A stretch of 64,000 bases of DNA, from the NCBI GenBank assembly GCA_965200785.1, contig CBDAVA010000003.1:2086205-2150204 (forward strand). Direction: 5' to 3'. Below are positions 5,210 to 26,024 of this stretch, in pieces (the stretch's first letter is position 1; each line of letters starts with the position of its first letter). The notes beneath the pieces were generated by a model, which had not been told where the DNA came from, made no database searches, and was given only the letters and a program-made list of their open reading frames with translations. The translations under genes were made by a program, and so were the position numbers. The DNA comes from Alphaproteobacteria bacterium. GTDB lineage: Bacteria > Pseudomonadota > Alphaproteobacteria > Bin95.

Positions 5210-5728
5210 ATGCACCTGCCCTTACTGCCGCTGGCCGCCATGGCCGGGCTGGTCGCGTTATCGAATGTCCTGGTCCAGTATCCGATCAATGACTGGCTGA
5301 CCTGGGGCGCGTTCACCTATCCGGTCTGCTTTCTCGTTACGGACCTCACCAACCGGATGCACGGCGCGGCGGCGGCGCGCCGGGTTGTCTATGTCGGTTT
5401 CGCCGCCGCCGTGCTGTTGTCTGTCCTGCTCGCCACGCCGCGCATTGCCGTTGCTTCGGGCCTGGCATTCCTCGCAGCCCAGCTTCTGGATGTGAGCGTG
5501 TTCGACTGGCTGCGGCGCCGGGCCTGGTGGCAGGCGCCGCTGGTTTCCTCCCTGCTCGGCTCTGCTGTCGATACGGCGCTGTTCTTCTCGGCGGCCTTCT
5601 ACGGCACGGACGTCCCCTGGATCACGCTTGGTATGGGGGACTTCCTTTGGAAGGCCGCGTTTGCGCTCGCAATGCTGCTGCCGTTCCGGCTGGCGATGCC
5701 GATAACGGCCCGCCCGAGCCCTCAATAG
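5210..5728 (+). CDS. Queuosine-precursor transporter (YhhQ/DUF165, VUT family).
   Basis: A multi-TM 172-aa protein with the YPINDWLTWGAFTYPVCFLVTDLTNR signature of YhhQ. Confidence 0.75.
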   Translation: MHLPLLPLAAMAGLVALSNVLVQYPINDWLTWGAFTYPVCFLVTDLTNRMHGAAAARRVVYVGFAAAVLLSVLLATPRIAVASGLAFLAAQLLDVSVFDWLRRRAWWQAPLVSSLLGSAVDTALFFSAAFYGTDVPWITLGMGDFLWKAAFALAMLLPFRLAMPITARPSPQ

Positions 5729-6489
5729 GCCGAAATACCGCCCTCCGCCGGGATCACGGCGCCATTCACCATGCGCGACTCGTCCGAAGCGAGGAACAGG
5801 GCGATATTGGCGATATCCTCCGGCTCGCCGACGCCGAAGGGATATTGCTCGAACACGCCGACAGACGCCTCCCTCGGGCGCTCTTCGTTCGGCTGGCGGT
5901 AGCGGGCGCGAATGCGTTCGGTCAGAATCAGGCCGGGGCAGATGACATTGGCGCGCACCCCCGCATCGGAATAGGAACCCGCGAGCGACCGGGTGAAGGA
6001 AATCAGCCCGCCCTTGGCGGCTGAATAGACATGCGCCGGATGATTGCCGCGCAAGGCGACCACCGACGACACATTCACGACGGCCCCGCCGCCGCCGGCG
6101 ACCATATGCGGCACGACATGCCGGCACATCAGCATCGGCCCCTTGAGGTCGAGCGGGATGGTGCGGTTCCAGACATCGAGATCGACCTCGTGGATTTTCG
6201 TATCCTCGACCACCGACCCGCCGGCGCAGTTGAACAGCACGTCGATGCGGCCGAACGCCGCCATCGCCGCCGCTGCGCAGGCCGCCGCCGAAGCATCGTC
6301 GGTCACATCGGTGCGGTGAAACGCAGCGCCGGTTTCCGCTGCCGTTGCCGAGCCCGCCGCCTCGTCGATCTCGGCGACCATCACCTTCGCTCCCTCGCGT
6401 ATGAAGATTCCGGTGGCCGCCTTGGCAATCCCGGACCCCGCGCCGGTAATCACCGCAACCTTTCCCTCGAGGCGTCCCATCTCTTGCAT
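5722..6489 (-). CDS. SDR-family oxidoreductase.
   Basis: Has the GKVAVITGAGSGIAKA Rossmann motif, NCAG, and the YSAAK catalytic motif. It forms the 3' part of a spurious 794-aa minus-strand ORF, with ATG at 6489 as the likely start. Confidence 0.85.
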   Translation of the reverse strand: MQEMGRLEGKVAVITGAGSGIAKAATGIFIREGAKVMVAEIDEAAGSATAAETGAAFHRTDVTDDASAAACAAAAMAAFGRIDVLFNCAGGSVVEDTKIHEVDLDVWNRTIPLDLKGPMLMCRHVVPHMVAGGGGAVVNVSSVVALRGNHPAHVYSAAKGGLISFTRSLAGSYSDAGVRANVICPGLILTERIRARYRQPNEERPREASVGVFEQYPFGVGEPEDIANIALFLASDESRMVNGAVIPAEGGISAY

Positions 6490-6519
6490 CCCTCCTGTTC
6501 CCGGCGCTAGGGTGCGCAC

Positions 6520-8175
6520 ATGCCACGCGAGCTTATCAATCCCTGCGGTATCTACCAGCGCAATAACGGGGCGCTGGCGCCCCGGCGCCCGCTGCAGGAA
6601 ACCCGGGTCATCGGGCTGTTCTCCAATCTCAAGGCCAATGCGGACCGGTATCTGGAAGAGATCGCAGAGCGGCTGAAGGCCCGGCATCCGCATCTCGAAT
6701 TCGCATTGTTCCAGAAGATTGCGAGCGAGCCGGCGAATTTCTCGCAGCAATGGCTGGACCGGGTTCACGCAGTAGCCGCCGCCTTCGGCGATTGAGGCTC
6801 CTGCACGTCGTGGTGTATCCATGACGCCATCAAGCTCGAACAGCGCGGCATTCCGGTTGCCGTAACCTGCACGGACGAGTTCTTCGCGCTTGGCAAGGCG
6901 GAGGCGGAGTGTCTCGGCATGGCCGGCTTGCCGATTGCCGTGGTGCCGCATCCGGTGGCCAAGCTGCCGCCTGCCGGCGTTGCGGAGATCGCCGACGAGG
7001 CCATCGACCAGATCGTCCATATGCTGGAGGCGGAGCCGGTCGCGCTTGCGGAAGAATGCCGCAAGCGCCCGCTGCCGAAACGCGGGCGCCTTCGCTACCG
7101 CTCCTTGTTCGAGGGCGATTTCAATGCGCCCGGCGCACCGGAGCGAATCTCCGGCCCGGACTCCCCCGACGCGCTCAACCGCGTCTTTTACCAGCGCGGC
7201 TGGACCGACGGCCTGCCTGTCGTCGCGCCGACGCCGGACCGGTGGGAAGCCATGCTGGGCGGGCGCGACCCCGGGGAGGAGATCGGCCTCATCGAGCCCC
7301 GCCTTGGCTGCGCAACCATCGGCAAGGTGGCGGCCAACGCCGTCATGGCCGGGGCCTCGCCGGCCATGATGCCGGCGATCCTGGCGGCAACCCGGGCGAT
7401 GACCGCCGAACGGCTGAACCTGAAGGCGCTCCAGTCCACAACCCATCCCTGCGGCCTGCTGACCGTTGTGCACGGCCCCATGGCGGACGACCTCGATATC
7501 GCCTCGGGCACCAACTGCATGGGCCAGGGCGCCGTCGCCAATGCCGCGATCGGACGCGCCGTCCGGCTTGTGCTGACCAATATCGGCGGCGCCCAGCCCG
7601 GCGTGCTCGACCGCGCGACAATGGGCACTCCGGCCAAATACAGCTACTGCTTCGCGGAAAACCTCGAAGCCAATCCATGGGCCCCCTTCCACACGGAACG
7701 CGGCTTCGATGCAGGCCGGAACGCGGTCACGCTGTGCGGCGTCGAGGGGCCGCATAATGTCAATGACCACTACAGCGAAACCGCCGAAGATGTGTTGCTG
7801 ACGGTCTGCGGCACCATGGCGACGCCCGGCTGCAACAACTCCTATTTCCACGGCGAATATCTGGTCGTGATCGGGCCGGAACATGCCGAGGTGATTGCGC
7901 GCGAGGGCTGGTCCAAGGACGATGTCAAGCGCTTCATCATCGAGCGCGCGATCATCCCGCGCTGGCACATCGGCAAGGCGCAGATGGCGCTTTACCGCCA
8001 GCAGGTGCCGGAACGGTTTGTCGGCCCCGATGGCCGGGACGGCGTGCGCATCGTGAGCGAGCCGGAGCAGCTCATGGTGATGGTCGCCGGCGGCGCCGGG
8101 CGGCATTCCTGCGTCATTCCCTCCTTCGGCAGCACCCTCTCGGTCACGCAGGCTGTCGAGGATCAGATGCGCTGA
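6520..8175 (+). CDS. Candidate selenoprotein with a D-U-G-S-C motif (in-frame TGA at 6793-6795 read as Sec); the N-terminal redox-like domain is followed by a large domain of unknown function.
   Basis: ORFs 6520-6795 and 6919-8175 are in the same frame and are separated only by the TGA. The 120 nt between them keep high GC3 coding character (…AAFGD-TGA-GSCTSWCIHDAIKLEQRGIPVAVTC…). A hairpin lies 11 nt downstream of the TGA. Alternative readings are two separate genes or a pseudogene. Confidence 0.5.
6806..6826 (+). promoter_or_regulatory. Candidate bacterial SECIS hairpin.
   Basis: CGUCGUGG-UGUAU-CCAUGACG forms an 8-bp stem (one G-U pair) with a 5-nt loop. It begins 11 nt 3' of the in-frame UGA, the canonical position for bacterial SECIS elements. 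Confidence 0.4.
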
Positions 8176-8238: not shown

Positions 8239-9125
8239 GTCTCAGTTTGTAACGAAGGCCCGTGCCGGCGGGTTTTTCGGAATGCGCCTCCGTGCTGCGC
8301 CGCTTCTATCGCCTCCCTTGTCGTCACCCCGGCCGGAGCAGAGCGGAGAGCCGGGGGCTGTCCTCCGCCGTTTCGACCCCGCGGAAAGATCAGAGGCTGG
8401 GCCCCGGCTCAAGGCCGGGGCGACAACAGGGCGTCCGGGGCGACGGCAGGGCAGGCCGGGGCGGCGAGTGGGGGTTCGGGGTGACGGGGGCCGGGTGCGG
8501 CAGGCAGGGTCATTCGGGGCACGGCCCGCATTGCGGCCCGAATGAAGCACCCCGCCCGTCACCCCGGCCGGCGCGCCCGCCTTCTTGTCACCCCGGCCGG
8601 AGCGCAGCGGAGAGCCGGGGTCCATCCTCTGCCGTTTCGTCCCTGCGGAAGGATCGGAGGCTGGGCCCCGGCTCAAGGCCGGGGCGACAGTAGGGCGTCC
8701 GGGGCGACAGTAGGGGTGTCCGGGGCGACGGCAGGGCAGGCCGGGTGCGGCAGGCAGGGTCATTCGGGGCACAGCCCGTATTGCGGCCCGAATGAAGCAC
8801 CCCGCCCGTCACTCCGGCCGGCGCGTGTGCCCTCGCGTCACCCCGCCGGCGCGCCCATCCTCCCGTCACCCCGGATGGAGCATGTGCCTCCTCTTGTCAC
8901 CCCGGCCGGAGCGCAGCGGAGAGCCGGGGTCCATCCTCCGCCGCTTCGGCCTTGCGGAAGGAACGGAGGCTGGGCCCCGGCTCAAAGCCGGGGCGACAGT
9001 AGTGGCGTCCGAGGCGACAGCAGGGCAGGCCGAGACAGCGCCGGGGGGGCGGGGCGGCGGGCCGGGCCTCTCAAGCTCCTGGCTGACTCTGCCAGAGGAA
9101 CGCGAATGCCAAACGGAGGCACTGC
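8239..9125 (+). repeat. Composite GC-rich intergenic repeat element (locus A), with the internal ~150-bp module present three times in tandem and interleaved with a second palindromic module.
   Basis: It begins with GTCTCAGTTTGTAACGAAGGCCCGTGCCGGCGGGTTTTTCGG and ends with …CTGCCAGAGGAACGCGAATGCCAAACGGAGGC. The module GTCACCCCGGCCGGAGCGCAGCGGAGAGCCGGGG…CTGGGCCCCGGCTCAAGGCCGGGGCGACA occurs at ~8320, ~8590 and ~8900. The same family recurs at 18236-18540, 36400-36712 and 54945-55168. Confidence 0.7.
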
Positions 9126-9204
9126 CGTCGGCAGGCGTTTTCCTGCCTTGCGCCAGCGCGGCCGCTTTCTATGGTGCAGCCATCTCATGCAAGGAGCAAC
9201 AAGG

Positions 9205-9687
9205 ATGACAATTGCAGCAGGAGACAAGGTGCCGGCGACGACCTTGAAGGAGATGACCGACAACGGACCGCAAAACGTCGAAACGGACGGTCTCTTCAGC
9301 GGAAAGAAGGTCGTCGCATTCTGCGTTCCCGGCGCGTTCACGCCGACATGCTCGGCCAAGCATCTTCCCGGCTTTATCGAGAAGGCGGACGCGATTCGCG
9401 CCAAGGGGGTGGATGACATCGTCTGCCTGTCGGTCAATGACCCCTTTGTCATGGGCGCCTGGGGCGAGGATCAAGGCGCTGCCGGCAAGGTCCGGATGCT
9501 GGCCGACGGGAGCGGCAATCTCGCCCGGGCCATGGGCGTCGAACTCGATCTGAGCGGCCTCGGGCTCGGCATACGCGCGCGCCGCTATTCCATGATCGTC
9601 GAGGACGGCACCGTCACACATCTCAATCTCGAGGACGGCGGGGCTTTCGAGGTTTCCAGCGCCGAAAGGATTCTGGAGCAGCTCTAG
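9205..9687 (+). CDS. Peroxiredoxin (Prx5-like, AhpC/TSA family).
   Basis: Has the FTPTCS peroxidatic Cys motif and Prx5-type length (160 aa). The ATG at 9205 is preceded by AAGGAG. Confidence 0.9.
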
Positions 9688-12072: not shown

Positions 12073-12606
12073 ATGGCGAGAGGGTTTGCGGTTGGAGCTG
12101 CGGGGCTGGTGGCGGCGCTTTCGGTCCTGGGAGGCTGTTCGGCCATTGGCGGCAAATCCACATCCTGCCCGACCGTCGGCGTCGTCGATAACGCCGGGCA
12201 ACTGACACGGTTCAGGAGCGGCGAACAGCGCGACCTTACGGATATCGAGTTCGAGGTGCAGGTTGCCAGCCTGTCCGCCGACTGCAGCTTCGACAGCGAG
12301 ACGCGGCTCGGCTCCGTGGAGCTCGACATCGCATTCCGCGCGCAGCGCGGGCCTGCGAGCATGACAGCTGCACACAGCTTCGGCTATTTCGTCGCCATCG
12401 TTGATCCTGACGGCAGCGTCACGGCCCGGAAGGCGTTTTCCATGCAGGCCGCTTTCGAGGACGGCAAGACGGAGGCGGTGCGCACCGAGCCGCTGGCCCT
12501 CACGATCCCGACGGCGGAAGGCACGGCGTTTCCCGCTTACCGAATCTATGTCGGGATGCAGCTCACGCGCGAACAGTTCGACCGTAACCTGACAGGCGGC
12601 CGCTAG
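12073..12606 (+). CDS. Hypothetical lipoprotein.
   Basis: Signal peptide plus lipobox (LSVLGG-C-S). There is no recognisable catalytic motif. The ATG is preceded by AGAGGA. Confidence 0.55.
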   Translation: MARGFAVGAAGLVAALSVLGGCSAIGGKSTSCPTVGVVDNAGQLTRFRSGEQRDLTDIEFEVQVASLSADCSFDSETRLGSVELDIAFRAQRGPASMTAAHSFGYFVAIVDPDGSVTARKAFSMQAAFEDGKTEAVRTEPLALTIPTAEGTAFPAYRIYVGMQLTREQFDRNLTGGR

Positions 12607-15119
12607 GCCTCAATGCCGTATCGGCTGAGCGCGAAGGCGTATAGCTCCGCGAGTTCGGCCAGTGTCTCGAAGCGGCCCGACGCGCCGCCATGTCCGGTGG
12701 CCATATTCGTGCGCAGAAGCAGCGTCGGTTCGCCTTCGGCACTATCCCGGAGCGCCGCGATCCATTTCGCCGGCTCCCAATAGGTCACGCGCGGATCCGA
12801 AACGCCTGCGGTCGCGAAAATATCGGGGTAGGGCGCAGCAGTGACATTCTCGTAGGGGCTGTAGGCTGCAATACGCCGGAACGCCGCCTCGTCTTCTATC
12901 GGATTGCCCCATTCCGGCCATTCAGGCGGCGTCAACGGCAATGCGGCGTCGGACATGGTGTTGAGCACATCGACGAACGGCACTTCGGCCAGCACGGCGT
13001 CGAACAGATCCGGCGCGCGGTTGACCGCGGCGCCCACCAGCAATCCCCCCGCGCTGCCGCCATGGGCGATGATGCTGCCGGCATATTCCTGCGCGGCCAG
13101 ATAGCGTCCGGCGGCGATGAAGTCGTCAAAACTGTTGGTCTTGTCGGCGAGTTTCCCGGTTCGGTACCAACGATAGCCGCGGTCCGTCCCGCCCCTGACA
13201 TGCGCGATGGCGTAAACCACGCCCCGATCGACAAGACTGAGTCTCGATGTCGAGAAACCCGCCGGAATGGATATGCCATAGGCGCCATACCCGTAGAGAA
13301 GGCAGGGCGGCGGCGGCGAGAACGCCAGATCGGCCCGGTAGAGCAGGGTGATCGGCACCGCCTCACCGTCCGGGGCCGCCGCAAACAGCCGCCGGACCCT
13401 ATAGGCTGCGGGGTCGTGGCCGCTCGGCACCTCCTGTTTTCGCAACAGCCGGCGTGTCCGGGCGGCCATGTCGTAGTCATAGACGTGAGCCGGTGTTGTC
13501 GGCGAGGCATAGGCGAAGCGCAGCGTGTCCGCCGCGTATTCAAAGCCCCGGAGGAGACTCAGGGAATAGGCCTCCTCGTCAAACGCAATCGCATGTTCGT
13601 CGCCGGAGGCGCGGGCGCGTACGACGATCCGGGGCAGCCCGTCCTCCCGCTCGAGACGCACGATCCAGTCGCGGAACAGGAGAAGCTGCAGGATGAGACG
13701 GCCCGGGATGTGCGGTATCAGGTCTTCCCAGGCGCCGGGGGCCGGGGCTTCGAGCGGGGCGGCGGCGACGCGAAAATCCTCGGCGTCGCGATCATTGGCG
13801 AGAACCAGCAACCGGTCCCCCTGGTCCCCGAGCGCATATTCGACACCGGGGCGCCGGGCTGCTACCAGACGGGGCGGGTTTTCGGGCTGGTCGGCATCGA
13901 CAAGGCGGATCTCGCTTGTCGTGTGGTCATGCGCATCCAGAAGGATGAACCGGCCGCTTTCCGTCTTTCCGACATTCACGAAGAAGCCGGGGTCGGTCTC
14001 TTCGTAAACGAGTTCGGGCGAGCCTCCGAGACGACGGCGATACACCCATCTGGGCCGGGCATGGTCGTCGCGGACCGTATAGAACACGGTTTCGCTGTCA
14101 TTGGCCCAGACGACATCGCCGGCGGTCCGCTCGACCTTGTCCGGCAGATCGGCGCCGGTCCGGGCGTCCCGGAAGAACAGCGTGTAGTCTTCGGAGCCGG
14201 CGAGATCGGCCGCGCAGGCAATCAGGCGGTGGTCGGGGCTGTGCCCGCAGGCGGCAATGCGGCAATAGGCTTGGCCGTCGGCAAGACGGTTGCCGTCCAG
14301 GAGCACCGTTTCCGCGCCTTCGCTGTCCTTGCGGCAAAACAGGGGGTATTCGCCGCCCGCGACGAAGCGGCGGTAATAGGCGAACGGGCCGTCCGGAGCC
14401 GGGGCTGTCGCGTCGTCTTCCTGGATCCTGCCCCGCATTTCCTGCAGCAGTGTTTCCTGAAGCGCGCGAAAGGGCTGCATCACCGCCCCCACATGCGCGT
14501 TCTCGGCTTCCAGATGCCGCCTGATGTCATCCGGCAGGACAGACGGGTCGCGCATCGCCTCCTGCCAGTTCCCGGCGCGAAGCCAGGCATAGGGGTCCAT
14601 GCGCTGCTGCCCGTGCTGGGTGATGCTGAGAGGGCGCCGCTCCGCCCGCGGCGGCCTCAGCGGGTTTTCCCCGGTGCCGATGCGGGTGAAGGCCCGCAGG
14701 GTTTCCTCGCTGACATGGTGTTCGATGCCCTCGGCATCGCGCCGGGCGGTCTCGTCGCTCACGCCGATCGCTTTCAGGAAGTCCAGCACGATCTGGTGGC
14801 GCCGGCGCGAGCGCAGCGCCATCTTGCGGCCCCGTCCGGTCAGGAATATCGATCGGTAGGGCCGTGTCGTGACCAGTCCGTCCCGCTGGAGGCGGGCAAC
14901 CGCCTTGCTGGCCGTCATATGGGTGACGCCCATGCGCCGCGCGATATCGACCAGGCGCGCCTCGCCGCTGGCCTCGATCAGGTCGTCGATCAGTTCGACA
15001 TAGTCTTCCGCAATTTCCTTGCGCCGCGCCCGCCGCGTATGGGTGAACACCGCCGCCTGCCGCTCGGCGTCTCCGAGCGTCCTGTCGGCATCGCGATCGT
15101 CGTCTTGTCGGTCGGTCAT
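12603..15119 (-). CDS. Fusion ORF of an MntR/DtxR-family metalloregulator N-terminal domain (~aa 25-145) and oligopeptidase B (S9A serine peptidase, PtrB).
   Basis: The N-terminus aligns to MntR (IAEDYVELIDDLIEASGEARLVDIA…EGIEHHVSEETL). From …PRAERRPLSITQHGQQRMDPYAWLR onward it aligns to E. coli PtrB through the catalytic GGSAGG region to the C-terminus. No stop codon or canonical start separates the two parts. Confidence 0.75.
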   Translation of the reverse strand: MTDRQDDDRDADRTLGDAERQAAVFTHTRRARRKEIAEDYVELIDDLIEASGEARLVDIARRMGVTHMTASKAVARLQRDGLVTTRPYRSIFLTGRGRKMALRSRRRHQIVLDFLKAIGVSDETARRDAEGIEHHVSEETLRAFTRIGTGENPLRPPRAERRPLSITQHGQQRMDPYAWLRAGNWQEAMRDPSVLPDDIRRHLEAENAHVGAVMQPFRALQETLLQEMRGRIQEDDATAPAPDGPFAYYRRFVAGGEYPLFCRKDSEGAETVLLDGNRLADGQAYCRIAACGHSPDHRLIACAADLAGSEDYTLFFRDARTGADLPDKVERTAGDVVWANDSETVFYTVRDDHARPRWVYRRRLGGSPELVYEETDPGFFVNVGKTESGRFILLDAHDHTTSEIRLVDADQPENPPRLVAARRPGVEYALGDQGDRLLVLANDRDAEDFRVAAAPLEAPAPGAWEDLIPHIPGRLILQLLLFRDWIVRLEREDGLPRIVVRARASGDEHAIAFDEEAYSLSLLRGFEYAADTLRFAYASPTTPAHVYDYDMAARTRRLLRKQEVPSGHDPAAYRVRRLFAAAPDGEAVPITLLYRADLAFSPPPPCLLYGYGAYGISIPAGFSTSRLSLVDRGVVYAIAHVRGGTDRGYRWYRTGKLADKTNSFDDFIAAGRYLAAQEYAGSIIAHGGSAGGLLVGAAVNRAPDLFDAVLAEVPFVDVLNTMSDAALPLTPPEWPEWGNPIEDEAAFRRIAAYSPYENVTAAPYPDIFATAGVSDPRVTYWEPAKWIAALRDSAEGEPTLLLRTNMATGHGGASGRFETLAELAELYAFALSRYGIEA

Positions 15120-15271
15120 CGCCCCATACCTATGACCGATGAACGCAAGGCCGGCAAGGGAACGCAGCCATTCGCGGCGCCCCCGTTTGAGGGCCGCATT
15201 CTCCCGGCGGGTCCGGACACTCGCCCGTCACACGGCTTTCCGCTGCGCTCCGGCGGCGCCTTCACCATGCG

Positions 15272-21726: not shown

Positions 21727-23364
21727 TCAACCTCGCGCAGTCGGCAAGATATAGTCCTTGAAGTCCTCCCGCAGCCTGGTTTTCAGGATCTTCCCGGTTG
21801 CCGTATGAGGAAGTTCGTCCACGAAGACGACATCGTCCGGCTTCCACCATCGGGCGATCCTGCCGTCGAAATAGTCGAGCAGCTCGTCCTTCCCGACTTC
21901 GGCGCCGCCTTCCTTGACAACAATCAACAGCGGCCGCTCGTCCCAATGCGGATGCGCGACGGAGATGACAGCCGCCTCGGCCACTTTCGGATGGCCGACC
22001 GCGATATTTTCCAGGTCGATGGAACTGATCCATTCGCCGCCGGACTTGATGACATCCTTGGTCCGGTCTGTGATGCGCATATATCCGTCCCCGTCGAGAG
22101 TGGCGACATCTCCCGTCGAGAACCAGCCGTCATCGGTATGCGCGTCCGACCGGTCCTGCTTGTGATAGGCGTTCGCGATCCAATATCCCCGCACCTGCAG
22201 GTCGCCGAATGCAACGCCGTCGCGCGGCAATTCCCGGCCGTCATCGCCGACAATGCGCATGTCCACGCCGTAAATCGGCCGGCCCTGTTTCTCGGCCAGG
22301 TCGAACCGGGCATCCTCGCTCAGCGCCATATGCTTGGCGAGCGGCGTGTTGACGGTGCCGAGCGGAGACATCTCGGTCATGCCCCAGGCATGGCGGACCG
22401 TCGCGCCGTAGTCCCGCTGAAACGTCTCCATCATCGAGCGGGGACAGGCGGAGCCGCCGATCACCACATTGGTCAGCGGGCGGATATTCTTGCCGGACCG
22501 TTTGAGATAGTCGAGCAGCATCAGCCAGATGGTCGGCACGGCGGCCGTCATCGTCACGCCTTCGCCGGTAATCAGAGACTGGACGTTTTCGCCGTCGAGA
22601 TGCGGCCCCGGCAGCACCAGCTTCGCACCGGCCATGGTGGCCGCATAGGGGATGCCCCAGGCGTTGGCGTGGAACATCGGCACGACAGGCATAACGGCGT
22701 CGCGCGCCGAGATATTCATGCAGTCCGGCCCGATGGATGCATAGCTGTGCAGAATGTTGCCGCGATGGCTGTAGAGCACGCCTTTCGGGTTTCCGGTCGT
22801 GCCGGACGTATAGCAGAGCGACGAAGCCGTCCGTTCGTCGAAGACCGGCCAGTCGAACACCGGATCCTGGGCGGCGACCAGCGTGTCATAGGCGACAAGA
22901 TCGAAATGCGCGCTTCCCGGCAGGCTCGCTTCGTCGCAGAGCACGACGACCGTCCGGACGGTGCCGGCGACTTCGGCGGCGAAGCTGTCCAGCAGCGGGA
23001 CGAAACCGGCCTCGACGAACAGCACGCGGTCATTCGCATGATTGACGATATAGGCAAGCTGGTCGAGATACAGGCGCGGATTGATGGTATGGCAAATGGC
23101 GCCGATACCGGACACTGCATAGTAGATCTCGAAGTGACGCCTTGTATTCCACGCCAGCGTGCCGACAGTGTCGCCGAAGCCGACGCCGAGCTCGCCCAGC
23201 GCATTGGCCAGCCGCTTGGCTTCGGCCTGGGCCTCGGCATAGCTGTAGCGGTGCAGGCCGCCCTCGACATTATGCGTCACGATCTCCGACCCGCCGTGAT
23301 ATTCGGCGGCGAAATCAATCAGGGACGAGATCAGCATCGGCCGGTCCATGATCAATCCGAGCAT
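21727..23364 (-). CDS. AMP-dependent acyl-CoA synthetase/ligase.
   Basis: Has the adenylate-forming motifs ([18 protein letters not shown]…, terminal K). The ATG at 23364 is preceded by GGAAGGA. The remainder of ORF 21727-23745 is a spurious 5' extension. Confidence 0.85.
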
Positions 23365-23437
23365 CGGTGTTATTCCTTCCGAAGATGCGTATCGCCGGCC
23401 TTTATAGCGGGGCGCGGCGGCGAACGGGAGCAGTGCG

Positions 23438-24403
23438 ATGCCTCTACTTGAGGTCGAGAATCTTCGGGTCGAGTTTCCGACGCGGCGGGGCGTTCTGGTC
23501 GCCGTGGACGATATCTCCTTCACCATCGAGGAGGGCGAGGTGCTGGGCGTGGTCGGCGAGTCGGGCGCCGGCAAGTCGCTTACCGGCATGTCGATCATCG
23601 GCCTTCTGGAGCCGCCCGGATGGATTGCGGGCGGACGCATCAGCCTCGCCGGCGAGCGCATCGACAACCTTCCGCAGGAAGCCATGCGGCAGGTGCGCGG
23701 CAAGCAGATCGGCGCGGTATTCCAGGATCCGCTGACCAGCCTCAACCCGCTCTACACCATTGGCCGCCAGCTGACGGAGACGATCTCGACGCATCTTGAT
23801 CTCGGCGACCGGGCGGCACGCGACCGGGCGCTCGAGCTTCTGTCCGAGGTGGGAATCCCGGCGCCCGCGCGCCGTATCGACAGCTATCCGCATGAGTTCT
23901 CGGGCGGGATGCGCCAGCGCGTGGTGATTGCGCTGGCGCTCGCGGCCAATCCGCGCCTGGTCATCGCCGATGAGCCGACAACCGCCCTCGATGTGTCGAT
24001 CCAGGCGCAGATTATCGCGCTCCTCAAGCGCCTTTGCCGCGAGCACGGCACGGCGGTGATGCTGGTGACGCACGATATGGGCGTCATTGCAGAGACCGCC
24101 GACCGGGTGGCGGTGATGTATGCCGGGCGCATCGCCGAGATCGGGCCGGTGCGCGAGGTCATCCAGGCCGCGCACCATCCCTATACAGAGGGCCTGATGG
24201 GCTCGATCCCGAGCATGGCGGAGCGCCGGGACCGGCTGGTTCAGATCGAAGGCGCCATGCCCCGCCTGACCGAAATTCCCGCCGGCTGCGCCTTCGGGCC
24301 ACGCTGTCCGAAGGTCTTTGCCCGCTGCCGTTCCGAGCGCCCCGAGCTGGTTGCCACCGGCGGGCCGAACCGCGCTGCATGTTGGCTTTACGATAGCGGG
24401 TAA
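23438..24403 (+). CDS. ABC transporter ATP-binding protein (DppD/OppD type).
   Basis: Walker A GESGAGKS, the LSGGMRQR signature, Walker B, and an oligopeptide-type C-terminal extension. Confidence 0.85.
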   Translation: MPLLEVENLRVEFPTRRGVLVAVDDISFTIEEGEVLGVVGESGAGKSLTGMSIIGLLEPPGWIAGGRISLAGERIDNLPQEAMRQVRGKQIGAVFQDPLTSLNPLYTIGRQLTETISTHLDLGDRAARDRALELLSEVGIPAPARRIDSYPHEFSGGMRQRVVIALALAANPRLVIADEPTTALDVSIQAQIIALLKRLCREHGTAVMLVTHDMGVIAETADRVAVMYAGRIAEIGPVREVIQAAHHPYTEGLMGSIPSMAERRDRLVQIEGAMPRLTEIPAGCAFGPRCPKVFARCRSERPELVATGGPNRAACWLYDSG

Positions 24404-24449: not shown

Positions 24450-26024
24450 ATGCGAACCCGACTTGCAGCGGCGACGGTTGCCGCAACCATGGCAATAGCA
24501 GCCCCGGCCGGGGCAAAGACCTTCACCTGGTCGTTCCAGGGAGACGCGCAGGCGCTCGATCCCTATGTGCTCAACGAGACCTTCACCCTTGGGCTGCTCG
24601 GCAATGTCTATGAAGGGCTGATCCGCCGGGGCCCGGACCTCGAAATTCAGCCGGCGCTCGCGGAACGATGGGAGATTCTGGAGCCGAACCGGTGGCGCTT
24701 CCATCTCAGGCAGGGCGTCGTCTTCCACAACGGCAACAGCTTCAACGCGGACGATGTCGTCTTTTCGGCGGACCGGGTGCGGGCGGAAGGATCGGACCTC
24801 ACCACCCGCATCGCCAAGAGCGTCAAGGTCGAGAAGGTTGACGACTACACCGTCGATTTCGTCACCGACGGCCCCAACCCCATCCTGCATTCGGAATGGG
24901 CGACCTGGTACATCATGGACAAGGAATGGACGGAGGCGAACAACGCCGTCTCGCCGTCGTCCGTGACCGAGGGCACAGCCAATTTTGCGGCCTTCAACAC
25001 CAATGGCACCGGGCCGTTCAAGGTCGTCAAGCGCGAGACCGACGTCGAGACCGTGCTGGAACCGCATGAGGGCTGGTGGGATACCGCCAAGCACAATCTC
25101 ACCCAGATCGTGTTCAAGCCGATCGGCTCCGATTCAACCCGCGTGGCCGCCTTGCTTACCGGCGAGATCGACATGGCCTATCCGGTGCCGGTGCAGGACA
25201 TTGAGCGGGTGGACAGCAATGCGGGCACGTCGGTGCTGATCGGCCCGGAACTGCGCACGATCTTCCTCGGCCTCGATATCCTGCGGGACGAGCTGACCTA
25301 CTCAAGCGTCAAGGGCGCCAATCCGTTCAAGGACGTCCGCGTGCGGCAGGCCTTCTATCACGCCATCAATATCGACGCGATCCGCAAGAAGGTGATGCGC
25401 CGGCTGTCCGACCCCTCGGCGCTCATGATTTCGCCGAAACTGTTTCCCCACGCCCCGCATATCGAACGCCTCGCCTATGACCCCGACAAGGCAAAAGCGC
25501 TGCTGGCGGAAGCCGGTTACGCGGAAGGCTTCGAGGTCGGCATGAACTGCCCCAACAACCGCTATGTCAATGACGAGCAGATCTGCATTGCGGTCACCTC
25601 CATGCTGGCGAAGGTCGGCATCACGGTGAACCTTGTGGCGGAACCCAAGGCGCTCTTCTTCAAGAAGATCCTGGGGCCGAACTACGATACCAGCTTCTTC
25701 CTGCTCGGCTGGACGCCGGGTTCGTTCGACAGCTGGAACGTGCTCTACAACCTGCTCAACTGCCGCGAGGACAGCGGCCGCGGCAAATTCAATGTCGGCG
25801 GCTACTGCAACAAGGACGTGGACGCCCTGACCGACAAGATCAAGGTCTCCACCGACGAAGCCGAACGCAATGCCATGATTGCCCAGGCTTACGAGATCGC
25901 GACGTCGGAGGCCGCGACCATTCCGCTGCACCAGCAGGGGCTGGCCTGGGGCAAGAGCGACTCCGTCGATCTGGTCCAGCGGGCCGACAACCAGTTCATG
26001 CTCTACTACGTGGTCAAGAACTGA
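24450..26024 (+). CDS. ABC transporter substrate-binding protein, family 5 (peptide/nickel/opine type).
   Basis: Signal peptide and 524 aa. The conserved SBP_bac_5 N-terminal region FTWSFQGDAQALDPY…LNETF…GNVYEGL is present. Confidence 0.85.
   Translation: MRTRLAAATVAATMAIAAPAGAKTFTWSFQGDAQALDPYVLNETFTLGLLGNVYEGLIRRGPDLEIQPALAERWEILEPNRWRFHLRQGVVFHNGNSFNADDVVFSADRVRAEGSDLTTRIAKSVKVEKVDDYTVDFVTDGPNPILHSEWATWYIMDKEWTEANNAVSPSSVTEGTANFAAFNTNGTGPFKVVKRETDVETVLEPHEGWWDTAKHNLTQIVFKPIGSDSTRVAALLTGEIDMAYPVPVQDIERVDSNAGTSVLIGPELRTIFLGLDILRDELTYSSVKGANPFKDVRVRQAFYHAINIDAIRKKVMRRLSDPSALMISPKLFPHAPHIERLAYDPDKAKALLAEAGYAEGFEVGMNCPNNRYVNDEQICIAVTSMLAKVGITVNLVAEPKALFFKKILGPNYDTSFFLLGWTPGSFDSWNVLYNLLNCREDSGRGKFNVGGYCNKDVDALTDKIKVSTDEAERNAMIAQAYEIATSEAATIPLHQQGLAWGKSDSVDLVQRADNQFMLYYVVKN

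Follow-up and report, generated by a model that had tools for sequence, protein, structure and literature searches.

A 64,000-nt stretch of alphaproteobacterial DNA (the window; positions 2,086,205 to 2,150,204 of contig CBDAVA010000003.1, assembly GCA_965200785.1) carries a gene in which a manganese-responsive regulator, MntR, is joined in frame to a peptidase of the PtrB (oligopeptidase B, OPB) type. The 838-amino acid (aa) protein consists of a complete MntR followed, after about 8 residues, by a complete PtrB-type peptidase. The fusion is real, conserved, and fixed in a clade of uncultured Alphaproteobacteria, and its product is probably a tolerated bifunctional protein.

Architecture of the fused protein

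The open reading frame (ORF) at 12603..15119 on the minus strand is free of internal stops, and four Pfam domains were assigned within it, all in one frame (Table 1). The initial annotation, made from the DNA sequence alone, had described an MntR/DtxR-type regulator joined in frame to an oligopeptidase-B-type S9 peptidase, and had proposed a search with the Pfam models Fe_dep_repress, Peptidase_S9_N and Peptidase_S9. All three domains were found, and the ORF, Pfam and NCBIfam results together bear out the description. The exact protein encoded by the window is already on record in NCBI/ENA, on a contig of 3.43 Mb. The representative of its 90% cluster is a 41-aa JGI fragment (P0392) that looks unrelated, which probably explains why the protein was absent from its own homology search.

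The N-terminal module scored 198.7 bits with the NCBIfam MntR equivalog NF008273/PRK11050, above the cutoff of 153. In this alignment, residues 4-147 correspond to positions 5-148 of the 156-position profile, in agreement with the earlier assignment of the first ~145 residues to MntR. The module also matched Escherichia coli MntR (PDB 2H09, E 8.5e-39), and its alignment with Bacillus subtilis MntR (PDB 1ON1) needed no gaps. All six Mn ligands of the B. subtilis protein (D8, E11, H77, E99, E102 and H103) are kept, as D39, E42, H108, E130, E133 and H134, respectively. Asp and Glu mark Mn sensors at the positions where Fe sensors have Met10 and Cys102 (PMC11672702), and the discriminating positions in the MntR module are of the Mn type. 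The module is not a free-standing protein of ~140-160 aa, as 683 further residues follow it without a stop; the MntR proteins of unfused sister lineages are 153 aa long. No Mn transporter or other Mn-related gene was found among the window ORFs scanned.

In the C-terminal module, residues 156-831 aligned with positions 2-673 of the 686-position NCBIfam oligopeptidase B profile PRK10115, with a score of 491.7 bits that lies below the equivalog cutoff of 1313. The unfused alphaproteobacterial relatives likewise fall under this cutoff, and their names in the source databases are ‘S9 family peptidase’ or ‘oligopeptidase B’. The oligopeptidase B of Serratia proteamaculans (PDB 7YWP) was matched with E 2e-152, residues 1-677 of the peptidase aligning with residues 3-673 of the chain. 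The catalytic triad is formed by Ser689 (GGSAGG, codon 13053..13055), Asp775 and His810, which are invariant in the alignment of PtrB homologues. On this evidence, the most fitting name for the peptidase half is oligopeptidase-B-like S9A peptidase.

In oligopeptidase B, the acidic pair Glu576/Glu578 directs cleavage after basic or dibasic residues, with Glu576 as the main P1 determinant (PMC3778648). As counted on the Serratia alignment, E733 matches Glu576 (Salmonella numbering), and the position of Glu578 is taken by Pro735, which is followed by E736 (residues 733-736, window positions 12913..12924). The surrounding PPEWPEWGNP motif is invariant among the aligned alphaproteobacterial PtrB homologues, fused or not. 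The proline is thus common to all unfused alphaproteobacterial relatives and is therefore no consequence of the fusion. As judged by this substitution, the P2 or dibasic preference of the alphaproteobacterial PtrB subgroup may differ from that of the enterobacterial enzyme.

An AlphaFold2 model of the fusion, built from a 99-sequence alignment, had a mean predicted local distance difference test (pLDDT) value of 80 and a predicted template modelling (pTM) score of 0.73. In the model, the helices of MntR reach residue 148 (pLDDT ~80-90), a coil extends over residues 149-163, with pLDDT below 50 at residues 150-153, and the propeller strands follow with values mostly between 85 and 95; the hydrolase fold is predicted as well. 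The model fits two independent modules joined by a short flexible tether.

Recurrence of the fusion in independent assemblies

A search of a large protein collection found at least 16 clusters of fused proteins, comprising more than 110 sequences of 838-839 aa with 82-92% identity, all of which include the four domains. Fused orthologs were found in ENA, NCBI, JGI and Logan assemblies, and the fusion is therefore independent of any one sequencing platform. Several are located on contigs of megabase size or on closed chromosomes (3.4-3.9 Mb), and one was assembled at 651x coverage into a closed chromosome of 3.94 Mb. A sequencing or assembly artefact is ruled out by this recurrence across independent sources and by the divergence of the linker, which has remained in frame.

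In one unfused locus, L087, ptrB was called in two pieces of 575 and 123 aa (5459..7515), where the near-identical L086 has an intact gene for 685 aa. The split of ptrB reflects an indel error of long reads or, alternatively, a gene that recently became a pseudogene, and it shows that frameshifts can be present in assemblies of this kind.

Origin of the fusion

The initial annotation had called for a comparison of orthologous loci, which proved to be the right test; the sister lineages are unfused and the clade of the window is fused. The unfused L001/L002 loci (PtrB 68% identity) have the gene order polA–mntR (153 aa)–ptrB (684 aa)–small ORF–ispH–thrB-like kinase, which matches the synteny of the window. 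The same order was found in the unfused L086/L087 loci (MntR 82% identity), with mntR for 153 aa and a PtrB of 685 aa. This lineage was reached through the MntR protein P0121, and its PtrB is similar, not identical, to the unfused protein P0017. In both lineages, the stop codon of mntR and the start codon of ptrB overlap by 4 nt in the sequence GTGA, preceded by GC or CC in L001 and L086, and this overlap is a classic signature of translational coupling.

From the codon for Ile147 to that for Pro156 there are 24 nt in every fused gene, as compared with 23 nt in the unfused ones. The position of the former GTG start of ptrB is occupied by CTG in the window, GTA in L089, and GCA in L088, L090 and L003. 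As judged by these differences in the junction DNA, the frame of mntR was shifted by +1 close to its 3' end, and the GTG start of ptrB, no longer needed, decayed afterwards. The sequence of the junction, …EETLRAFTRIG / PRAERRPLSITQHG, is as the initial annotation had given it. However, a PtrB homology that begins ahead of the normal N-terminus was not found, since the ancestral start aligns with Leu154 and the profile starts at Pro156. Similarly, the loss of a stop codon, which had been put forward as one possible cause, is ruled out by the +1 frameshift, which lies upstream of the GTGA overlap and was accompanied by loss of the GTG start, and by the retention of the old TGA out of frame. A stop codon between the two parts in orthologs had been named as the finding that would speak against the fusion. 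Such orthologs exist (L001, L086), but they belong to sister lineages keeping the ancestral state; all members of the clade of the window are fused, and hence the unfused orthologs do not refute the fusion.

The course of events was as follows. The ancestor carried translationally coupled mntR and ptrB genes downstream of polA, with the stop and start codons overlapping in GTGA. Insertion of one nucleotide in the last few codons of mntR shifted the mntR frame into the ptrB frame, whereby the TGA of mntR dropped out of frame, and the GTG start, now redundant, decayed to CTG, GTA or GCA.

A tree built from the PtrB part by neighbour joining had the fused proteins as a monophyletic group in 71% of bootstraps, and joined them with the nearest unfused protein, P0017, in 100%. 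A single origin of the fusion is favoured by the tree. With tblastn, 79 further ptrB loci of reference genomes were surveyed (≤59% identity, most of them from Hyphomicrobiales and other Alphaproteobacteria), and no mntR-like gene was identified within ±4 kb of any of them. As judged by this survey, the adjacency of mntR and ptrB is therefore peculiar to this lineage, and it predates the fusion. A widespread linkage of the two genes is ruled out by the same result; apparent extensions of matches into the MntR part (L027, L042 and others) are not MntR homology.

Linker and internal start codons

The linker is GTGENPLR in the window and SEGDRAAS, SEAGSAVS, SERGNAAS or SEHDSKAP in other fused orthologs, all of which are in frame. 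The linker type of P0001 (JGI, 92% identity) is the same as that of the window. No cleavage or docking motif is conserved in the linker in the alignment of fused orthologs. An ERRP/EKRP motif, with a dibasic RR, stands directly after the linker and is present also in the unfused and Serratia enzymes.

The initial annotation had seen no plausible start codon for a separate PtrB. In-frame ATG codons do exist downstream (M174, M189), but they do not provide a conserved start where native PtrB begins, and no in-frame start near that position is conserved among the fused orthologs. Other fused orthologs have GTA or GCA at the position of CTG154, and ATC at the position of ATG174. The sole conserved Met is M189, 35 codons downstream, which is an invariant internal residue of PtrB in the unfused enzymes as well. 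Moreover, no stop able to end MntR by frameshifting is conserved in any frame among the fused orthologs. Hence, as judged by the sequences of the clade, full-length PtrB can arise only within the fusion, as its C-terminal part.

Selection and age

Pairwise Nei-Gojobori estimates were obtained among five fused genes. The ratio of nonsynonymous to synonymous divergence (ω) was 0.02-0.06 for MntR (residues 17-147), with synonymous divergence (dS) of 0.43-1.19, and 0.09-0.12 for PtrB (residues 157-838), with dS of 0.63-1.27. The nine linker codons gave noisy values of ω that scatter around 1. Between the two unfused lineages, ω for MntR was 0.14, as compared with the lower values within the fused clade. 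The fusion is old. Strong purifying selection has acted on both modules since its formation, while the linker has drifted. The event is thus not recent, as had been considered initially, the synonymous divergence inside the fused clade being 0.4-1.3.

Upstream element and neighbouring genes

A spacer of 80-152 nt between polA and mntR is found only in the fused clade (15120..15271 in the window, 5921..6000 in L003, and 2921..3000 in L088-L090), and contains a conserved element (Table 1). In the unfused L086 and L001, the element is absent and mntR starts 0-21 nt past the polA stop. The element was not scored as a σ70 promoter by a simple σ70 scan, and no second copy is present in the window; a repeated operator within the window is ruled out by the single copy. 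The element may be a clade-specific promoter, possibly one whose transcript is near-leaderless, or an operator, and may have been acquired at about the time when the genes fused.

An ORF for 177 aa (12073..12606, plus strand) converges on the fused gene and overlaps its stop by 4 nt. It encodes a lipoprotein-like N-terminus (…LSVLGGCSA…) and has no Pfam match, and an ORF for 174-186 aa lies at the same syntenic place in L003, L086 and L088. Upstream of polA are an AMP-binding acyl-CoA-synthetase-like gene (21727..23745, minus strand) and genes for an Opp/Dpp-type peptide ATP-binding cassette (ABC) transporter, namely an ATPase with an oligo_HPY domain (23438..24403) and an SBP_bac_5 binding protein (24450..26024). 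The location of a peptide importer ~8 kb from a peptide-degrading enzyme may be a coincidence. In an ORF for 381 aa (8542..9687, plus strand), the Redoxin/AhpC-TSA domain is confined to residues 226-378; the start as listed lies too far upstream, or else the protein has an N-terminal extension.

Table 1. Features of the fused mntR–ptrB gene in the window. Residue numbers refer to the 838-aa protein.
Feature	Coordinates	Strand	Basis
Whole fused gene, 838 codons and stop (stop codon 12603..12605)	12603..15119	-	ORF, four domains in one frame
MntR module, residues 1-147	14679..15119	-	PRK11050, structure matches, ligands
Winged helix-turn-helix DNA-binding domain, residues 37-90	14850..15011	-	Pfam Fe_dep_repress (PF01325), E 2e-9, 37.9 bits (cutoff 26)
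Metal-binding/dimerisation domain, residues 94-145	14685..14840	-	Pfam Fe_dep_repr_C (PF02742), E 1e-11, 45 bits (cutoff 27)
Linker, residues 148-155 (GTGENPLR)	14655..14678	-	Old mntR 3' end and first two ptrB codons
Relic of the ancestral ptrB GTG start, now CTG (Leu154)	14658..14660	-	L001/L086 comparison
Old mntR TGA, out of frame (cTGAgg)	14657..14659	-	L001/L086 comparison
Oligopeptidase-B-like S9A peptidase module, residues 156-838	12606..14654	-	Pfam, NCBIfam, Serratia alignment
β-Propeller, residues 161-561	13437..14639	-	Pfam Peptidase_S9_N, E 5.5e-80, 269.6 bits
α/β-Hydrolase catalytic domain, residues 622-832	12624..13256	-	Pfam Peptidase_S9, E 6.6e-59, 199.4 bits
Conserved upstream element, TCCCTTGCC-N13-CATCsGTCATAGGT, end 9 nt before ATG	15128..15161	-	Kept in window, L003, L088, L089, L090

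Discussion

The product of the fused gene would be a single polypeptide of ~93 kDa with its modules on a short flexible tether. The N-terminal MntR module should form dimers, take up two Mn2+ per subunit and act as a repressor at target promoters, and the C-terminal module should remain an active oligopeptidase-B-type serine peptidase that cuts short peptides after basic residues. The fusion would lock in the 1:1 co-expression that coupling already gave, and the peptidase would be made dimeric through MntR, with two peptidase modules of 76 kDa carried by the MntR dimer. Such an arrangement would be tolerated, as the C-terminus of DtxR-family proteins points away from DNA and takes extra domains. 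Since coupling had already tied the expression of mntR and ptrB together, the fusion changed little; it could have fixed neutrally or nearly so. We consider it probable that the fused protein is a tolerated bifunctional product of already coupled genes, the two activities of which act independently, and we infer that the full-length protein is the functional species. Against this conclusion, long retention under selection would be expected of a functionally coupled fusion too, so that independence of the halves is a default assumption, and the support for monophyly is only moderate, so that two parallel fusions are possible.

That a single-base indel error, for instance in a long-read assembly, joined two separate genes in the window would accord with the single base that separates the fused from the unfused state, with the derivation of many relatives from long-read metagenome assemblies, and with the split ptrB of L087, which is as such an error would give. 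Nevertheless, this explanation is close to inconceivable. The same fused frame is shared by sequences from independent samples and sources, including the closed chromosome of high coverage, and random indel error cannot account for a start codon mutated differently in each sublineage or for a linker that diverged in frame; P0001 further shares the linker type of the window. It is hardly credible that one half is a decaying passenger, a regulator or peptidase that lost its function and was kept as a structural appendage. The low PRK10115 score and Pro735 could be read in this way, but both are seen in every unfused alphaproteobacterial homologue of PtrB. Moreover, the values of ω for the two halves are far below 1, and the catalytic and metal-binding residues are all intact. 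Internal initiation at CTG154, ATG174 or ATG189, or processing, might restore free PtrB and/or free MntR and leave the fusion protein as a minor species. At the site of the old start in the window, CTG154 is preceded at a distance of 6 nt by a GGGGAA stretch, and an AGGAGG-like stretch precedes ATG189 in all members. However, CTG154 and ATG174 are not conserved, ATG189 is only 2 nt from the Shine-Dalgarno-like stretch, and a start at this internal PtrB codon would drop ~33 native N-terminal residues; with no conserved stop to end the translation of MntR, this explanation is very unlikely.

The fusion might instead be functionally coupled, the covalent link having a regulatory purpose. Mn2+-dependent dimerisation or DNA binding could steer the activity or location of the peptidase, binding of peptides in the propeller could modulate repression, or cleavage of the linker could release or inactivate the regulator. 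Metal-regulated proteolysis and protease-controlled release of the regulator had been suggested in the initial annotation, and both are speculative. Retention of the fusion over dS ~1 under constraint on both halves, values of ω for MntR that are lower in the fused clade than between the unfused lineages, and the conserved upstream element that the clade gained are consistent with this explanation, as is the adjacency of mntR and ptrB that predates the fusion, in that a link of some kind may have been favoured by selection. Just past the linker there is also a dibasic RR. On the other hand, the linker is short, hypervariable, predicted to be disordered and devoid of a conserved cleavage or docking motif, while ERRP/EKRP is native to the N-terminus of PtrB and its RR is followed by Pro. 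Oligopeptidase B is generally known to take only short peptides, not folded proteins. Furthermore, the absence of mntR near the 79 other ptrB loci argues against a general functional association, and fusion of overlapping coupled genes takes one indel and can be nearly neutral. We therefore regard a functionally coupled fusion as unlikely. A more specific form is speculative and rather improbable, namely a functional tether by which Mn2+-driven dimerisation and operator binding would govern how active the peptidase is, its oligomeric state or its nucleoid location, or by which peptide occupancy of the propeller would feed back on repression. If true, it would link manganese status to cytoplasmic peptide turnover, and would represent a new class of one-component regulator, in which an S9 peptidase would serve a metal sensor as its output or input domain.

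The initial annotation had regarded the architecture as one not known to it, and indeed no paper found in the open-access literature pairs MntR with oligopeptidase B or describes a DtxR/MntR–peptidase fusion. The architecture thus appears to be undescribed, though the sequences are public. NCBI names the 839-aa fused ortholog P0393 (MCY4230419.1, MCY4318781.1) only ‘manganese-binding transcriptional regulator MntR’. As annotation pipelines label the fusion only as MntR, the peptidase is invisible in functional profiles of these genomes. Searches that were not exhaustive identified no independent MntR–S9 fusion elsewhere. Of these, a word-indexed search with MntR only did not list the fused proteins already known, and among proteins clustered at 50% a PtrB is probably the representative of the fused clade.

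The locus is a clean, datable natural case of two coupled genes becoming one, with the ancestral and derived states surviving in sister lineages. It is also a natural test of the C-terminal cargo that is tolerated by a working DtxR-family repressor.

Comparison with known systems

The MntR module resembles E. coli MntR (2H09) and B. subtilis MntR (1ON1) in its winged helix-turn-helix, its helical metal-binding/dimerisation domain and the six ligands of the binuclear site, and is equal in length to the E. coli protein. However, canonical MntR is free-standing, whereas here the C-terminus runs on into the 683-residue peptidase. Likewise, the peptidase module is similar to oligopeptidase B/protease II (MEROPS S9A; 7YWP and E. 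coli PtrB) in its end-to-end alignment, N-terminal segment, seven-bladed-propeller region, α/β-hydrolase domain, triad and equivalent of Glu576. It differs in having no start codon of its own, being made only as the C-terminal part of a fusion, and it is distinguished from the E. coli-type enzyme by the score below the equivalog cutoff and the Pro at the Glu578 position.

A DNA-binding regulator and a catalytic domain are found on one polypeptide also in LexA/λ CI, PutA, BirA and NadR. LexA gives a precedent for a repressor with a serine peptidase and is taken here as a functional analogy only. Its S24 Ser-Lys peptidase cuts LexA itself, at an Ala-Gly site, as a regulatory switch, and in PutA, BirA and NadR the substrate of the enzyme is the regulatory signal. 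In contrast to LexA, the peptidase of the fusion is an S9 Ser-Asp-His enzyme of an unrelated clan, without a known link to manganese. No S24 domain was found in the Pfam search of the fusion, and no self-cleavage motif is conserved in its linker.

Closer in form are regulators of the same family in which the two-domain core is followed by an extra C-terminal domain on a flexible tether. DtxR and IdeR carry an SH3-like domain at this position. Among MntR-family proteins in the databases (P0241, P0242, P0122, P0124, P0385 and P0355), the extended forms include tandem MntR–MntR proteins of 249-360 aa (such as P0241/P0242), an MntR–rhodanese protein of 421 aa (P0385), and a protein of 550 aa in which MntR is followed by ~385 residues with no Pfam match. 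Given the tandem MntR and MntR–rhodanese examples, the C-terminus of MntR tolerates additions. The present fusion differs from DtxR/IdeR and from the other MntR extensions in that the addition is a large two-domain enzyme of 683 aa rather than a small domain with a regulatory role.

In its origin, the fusion resembles ‘Rosetta-stone’ fusions that arise by indels at the overlapping stop and start codons of coupled genes, with which it shares the GTGA overlap, the single +1 indel and a linker derived from the former gene ends. Compared with these, the mechanism is ordinary and the partner pair is the unusual feature. The mntR–ptrB gene is thus a new domain architecture made from two ordinary families by an ordinary mechanism.

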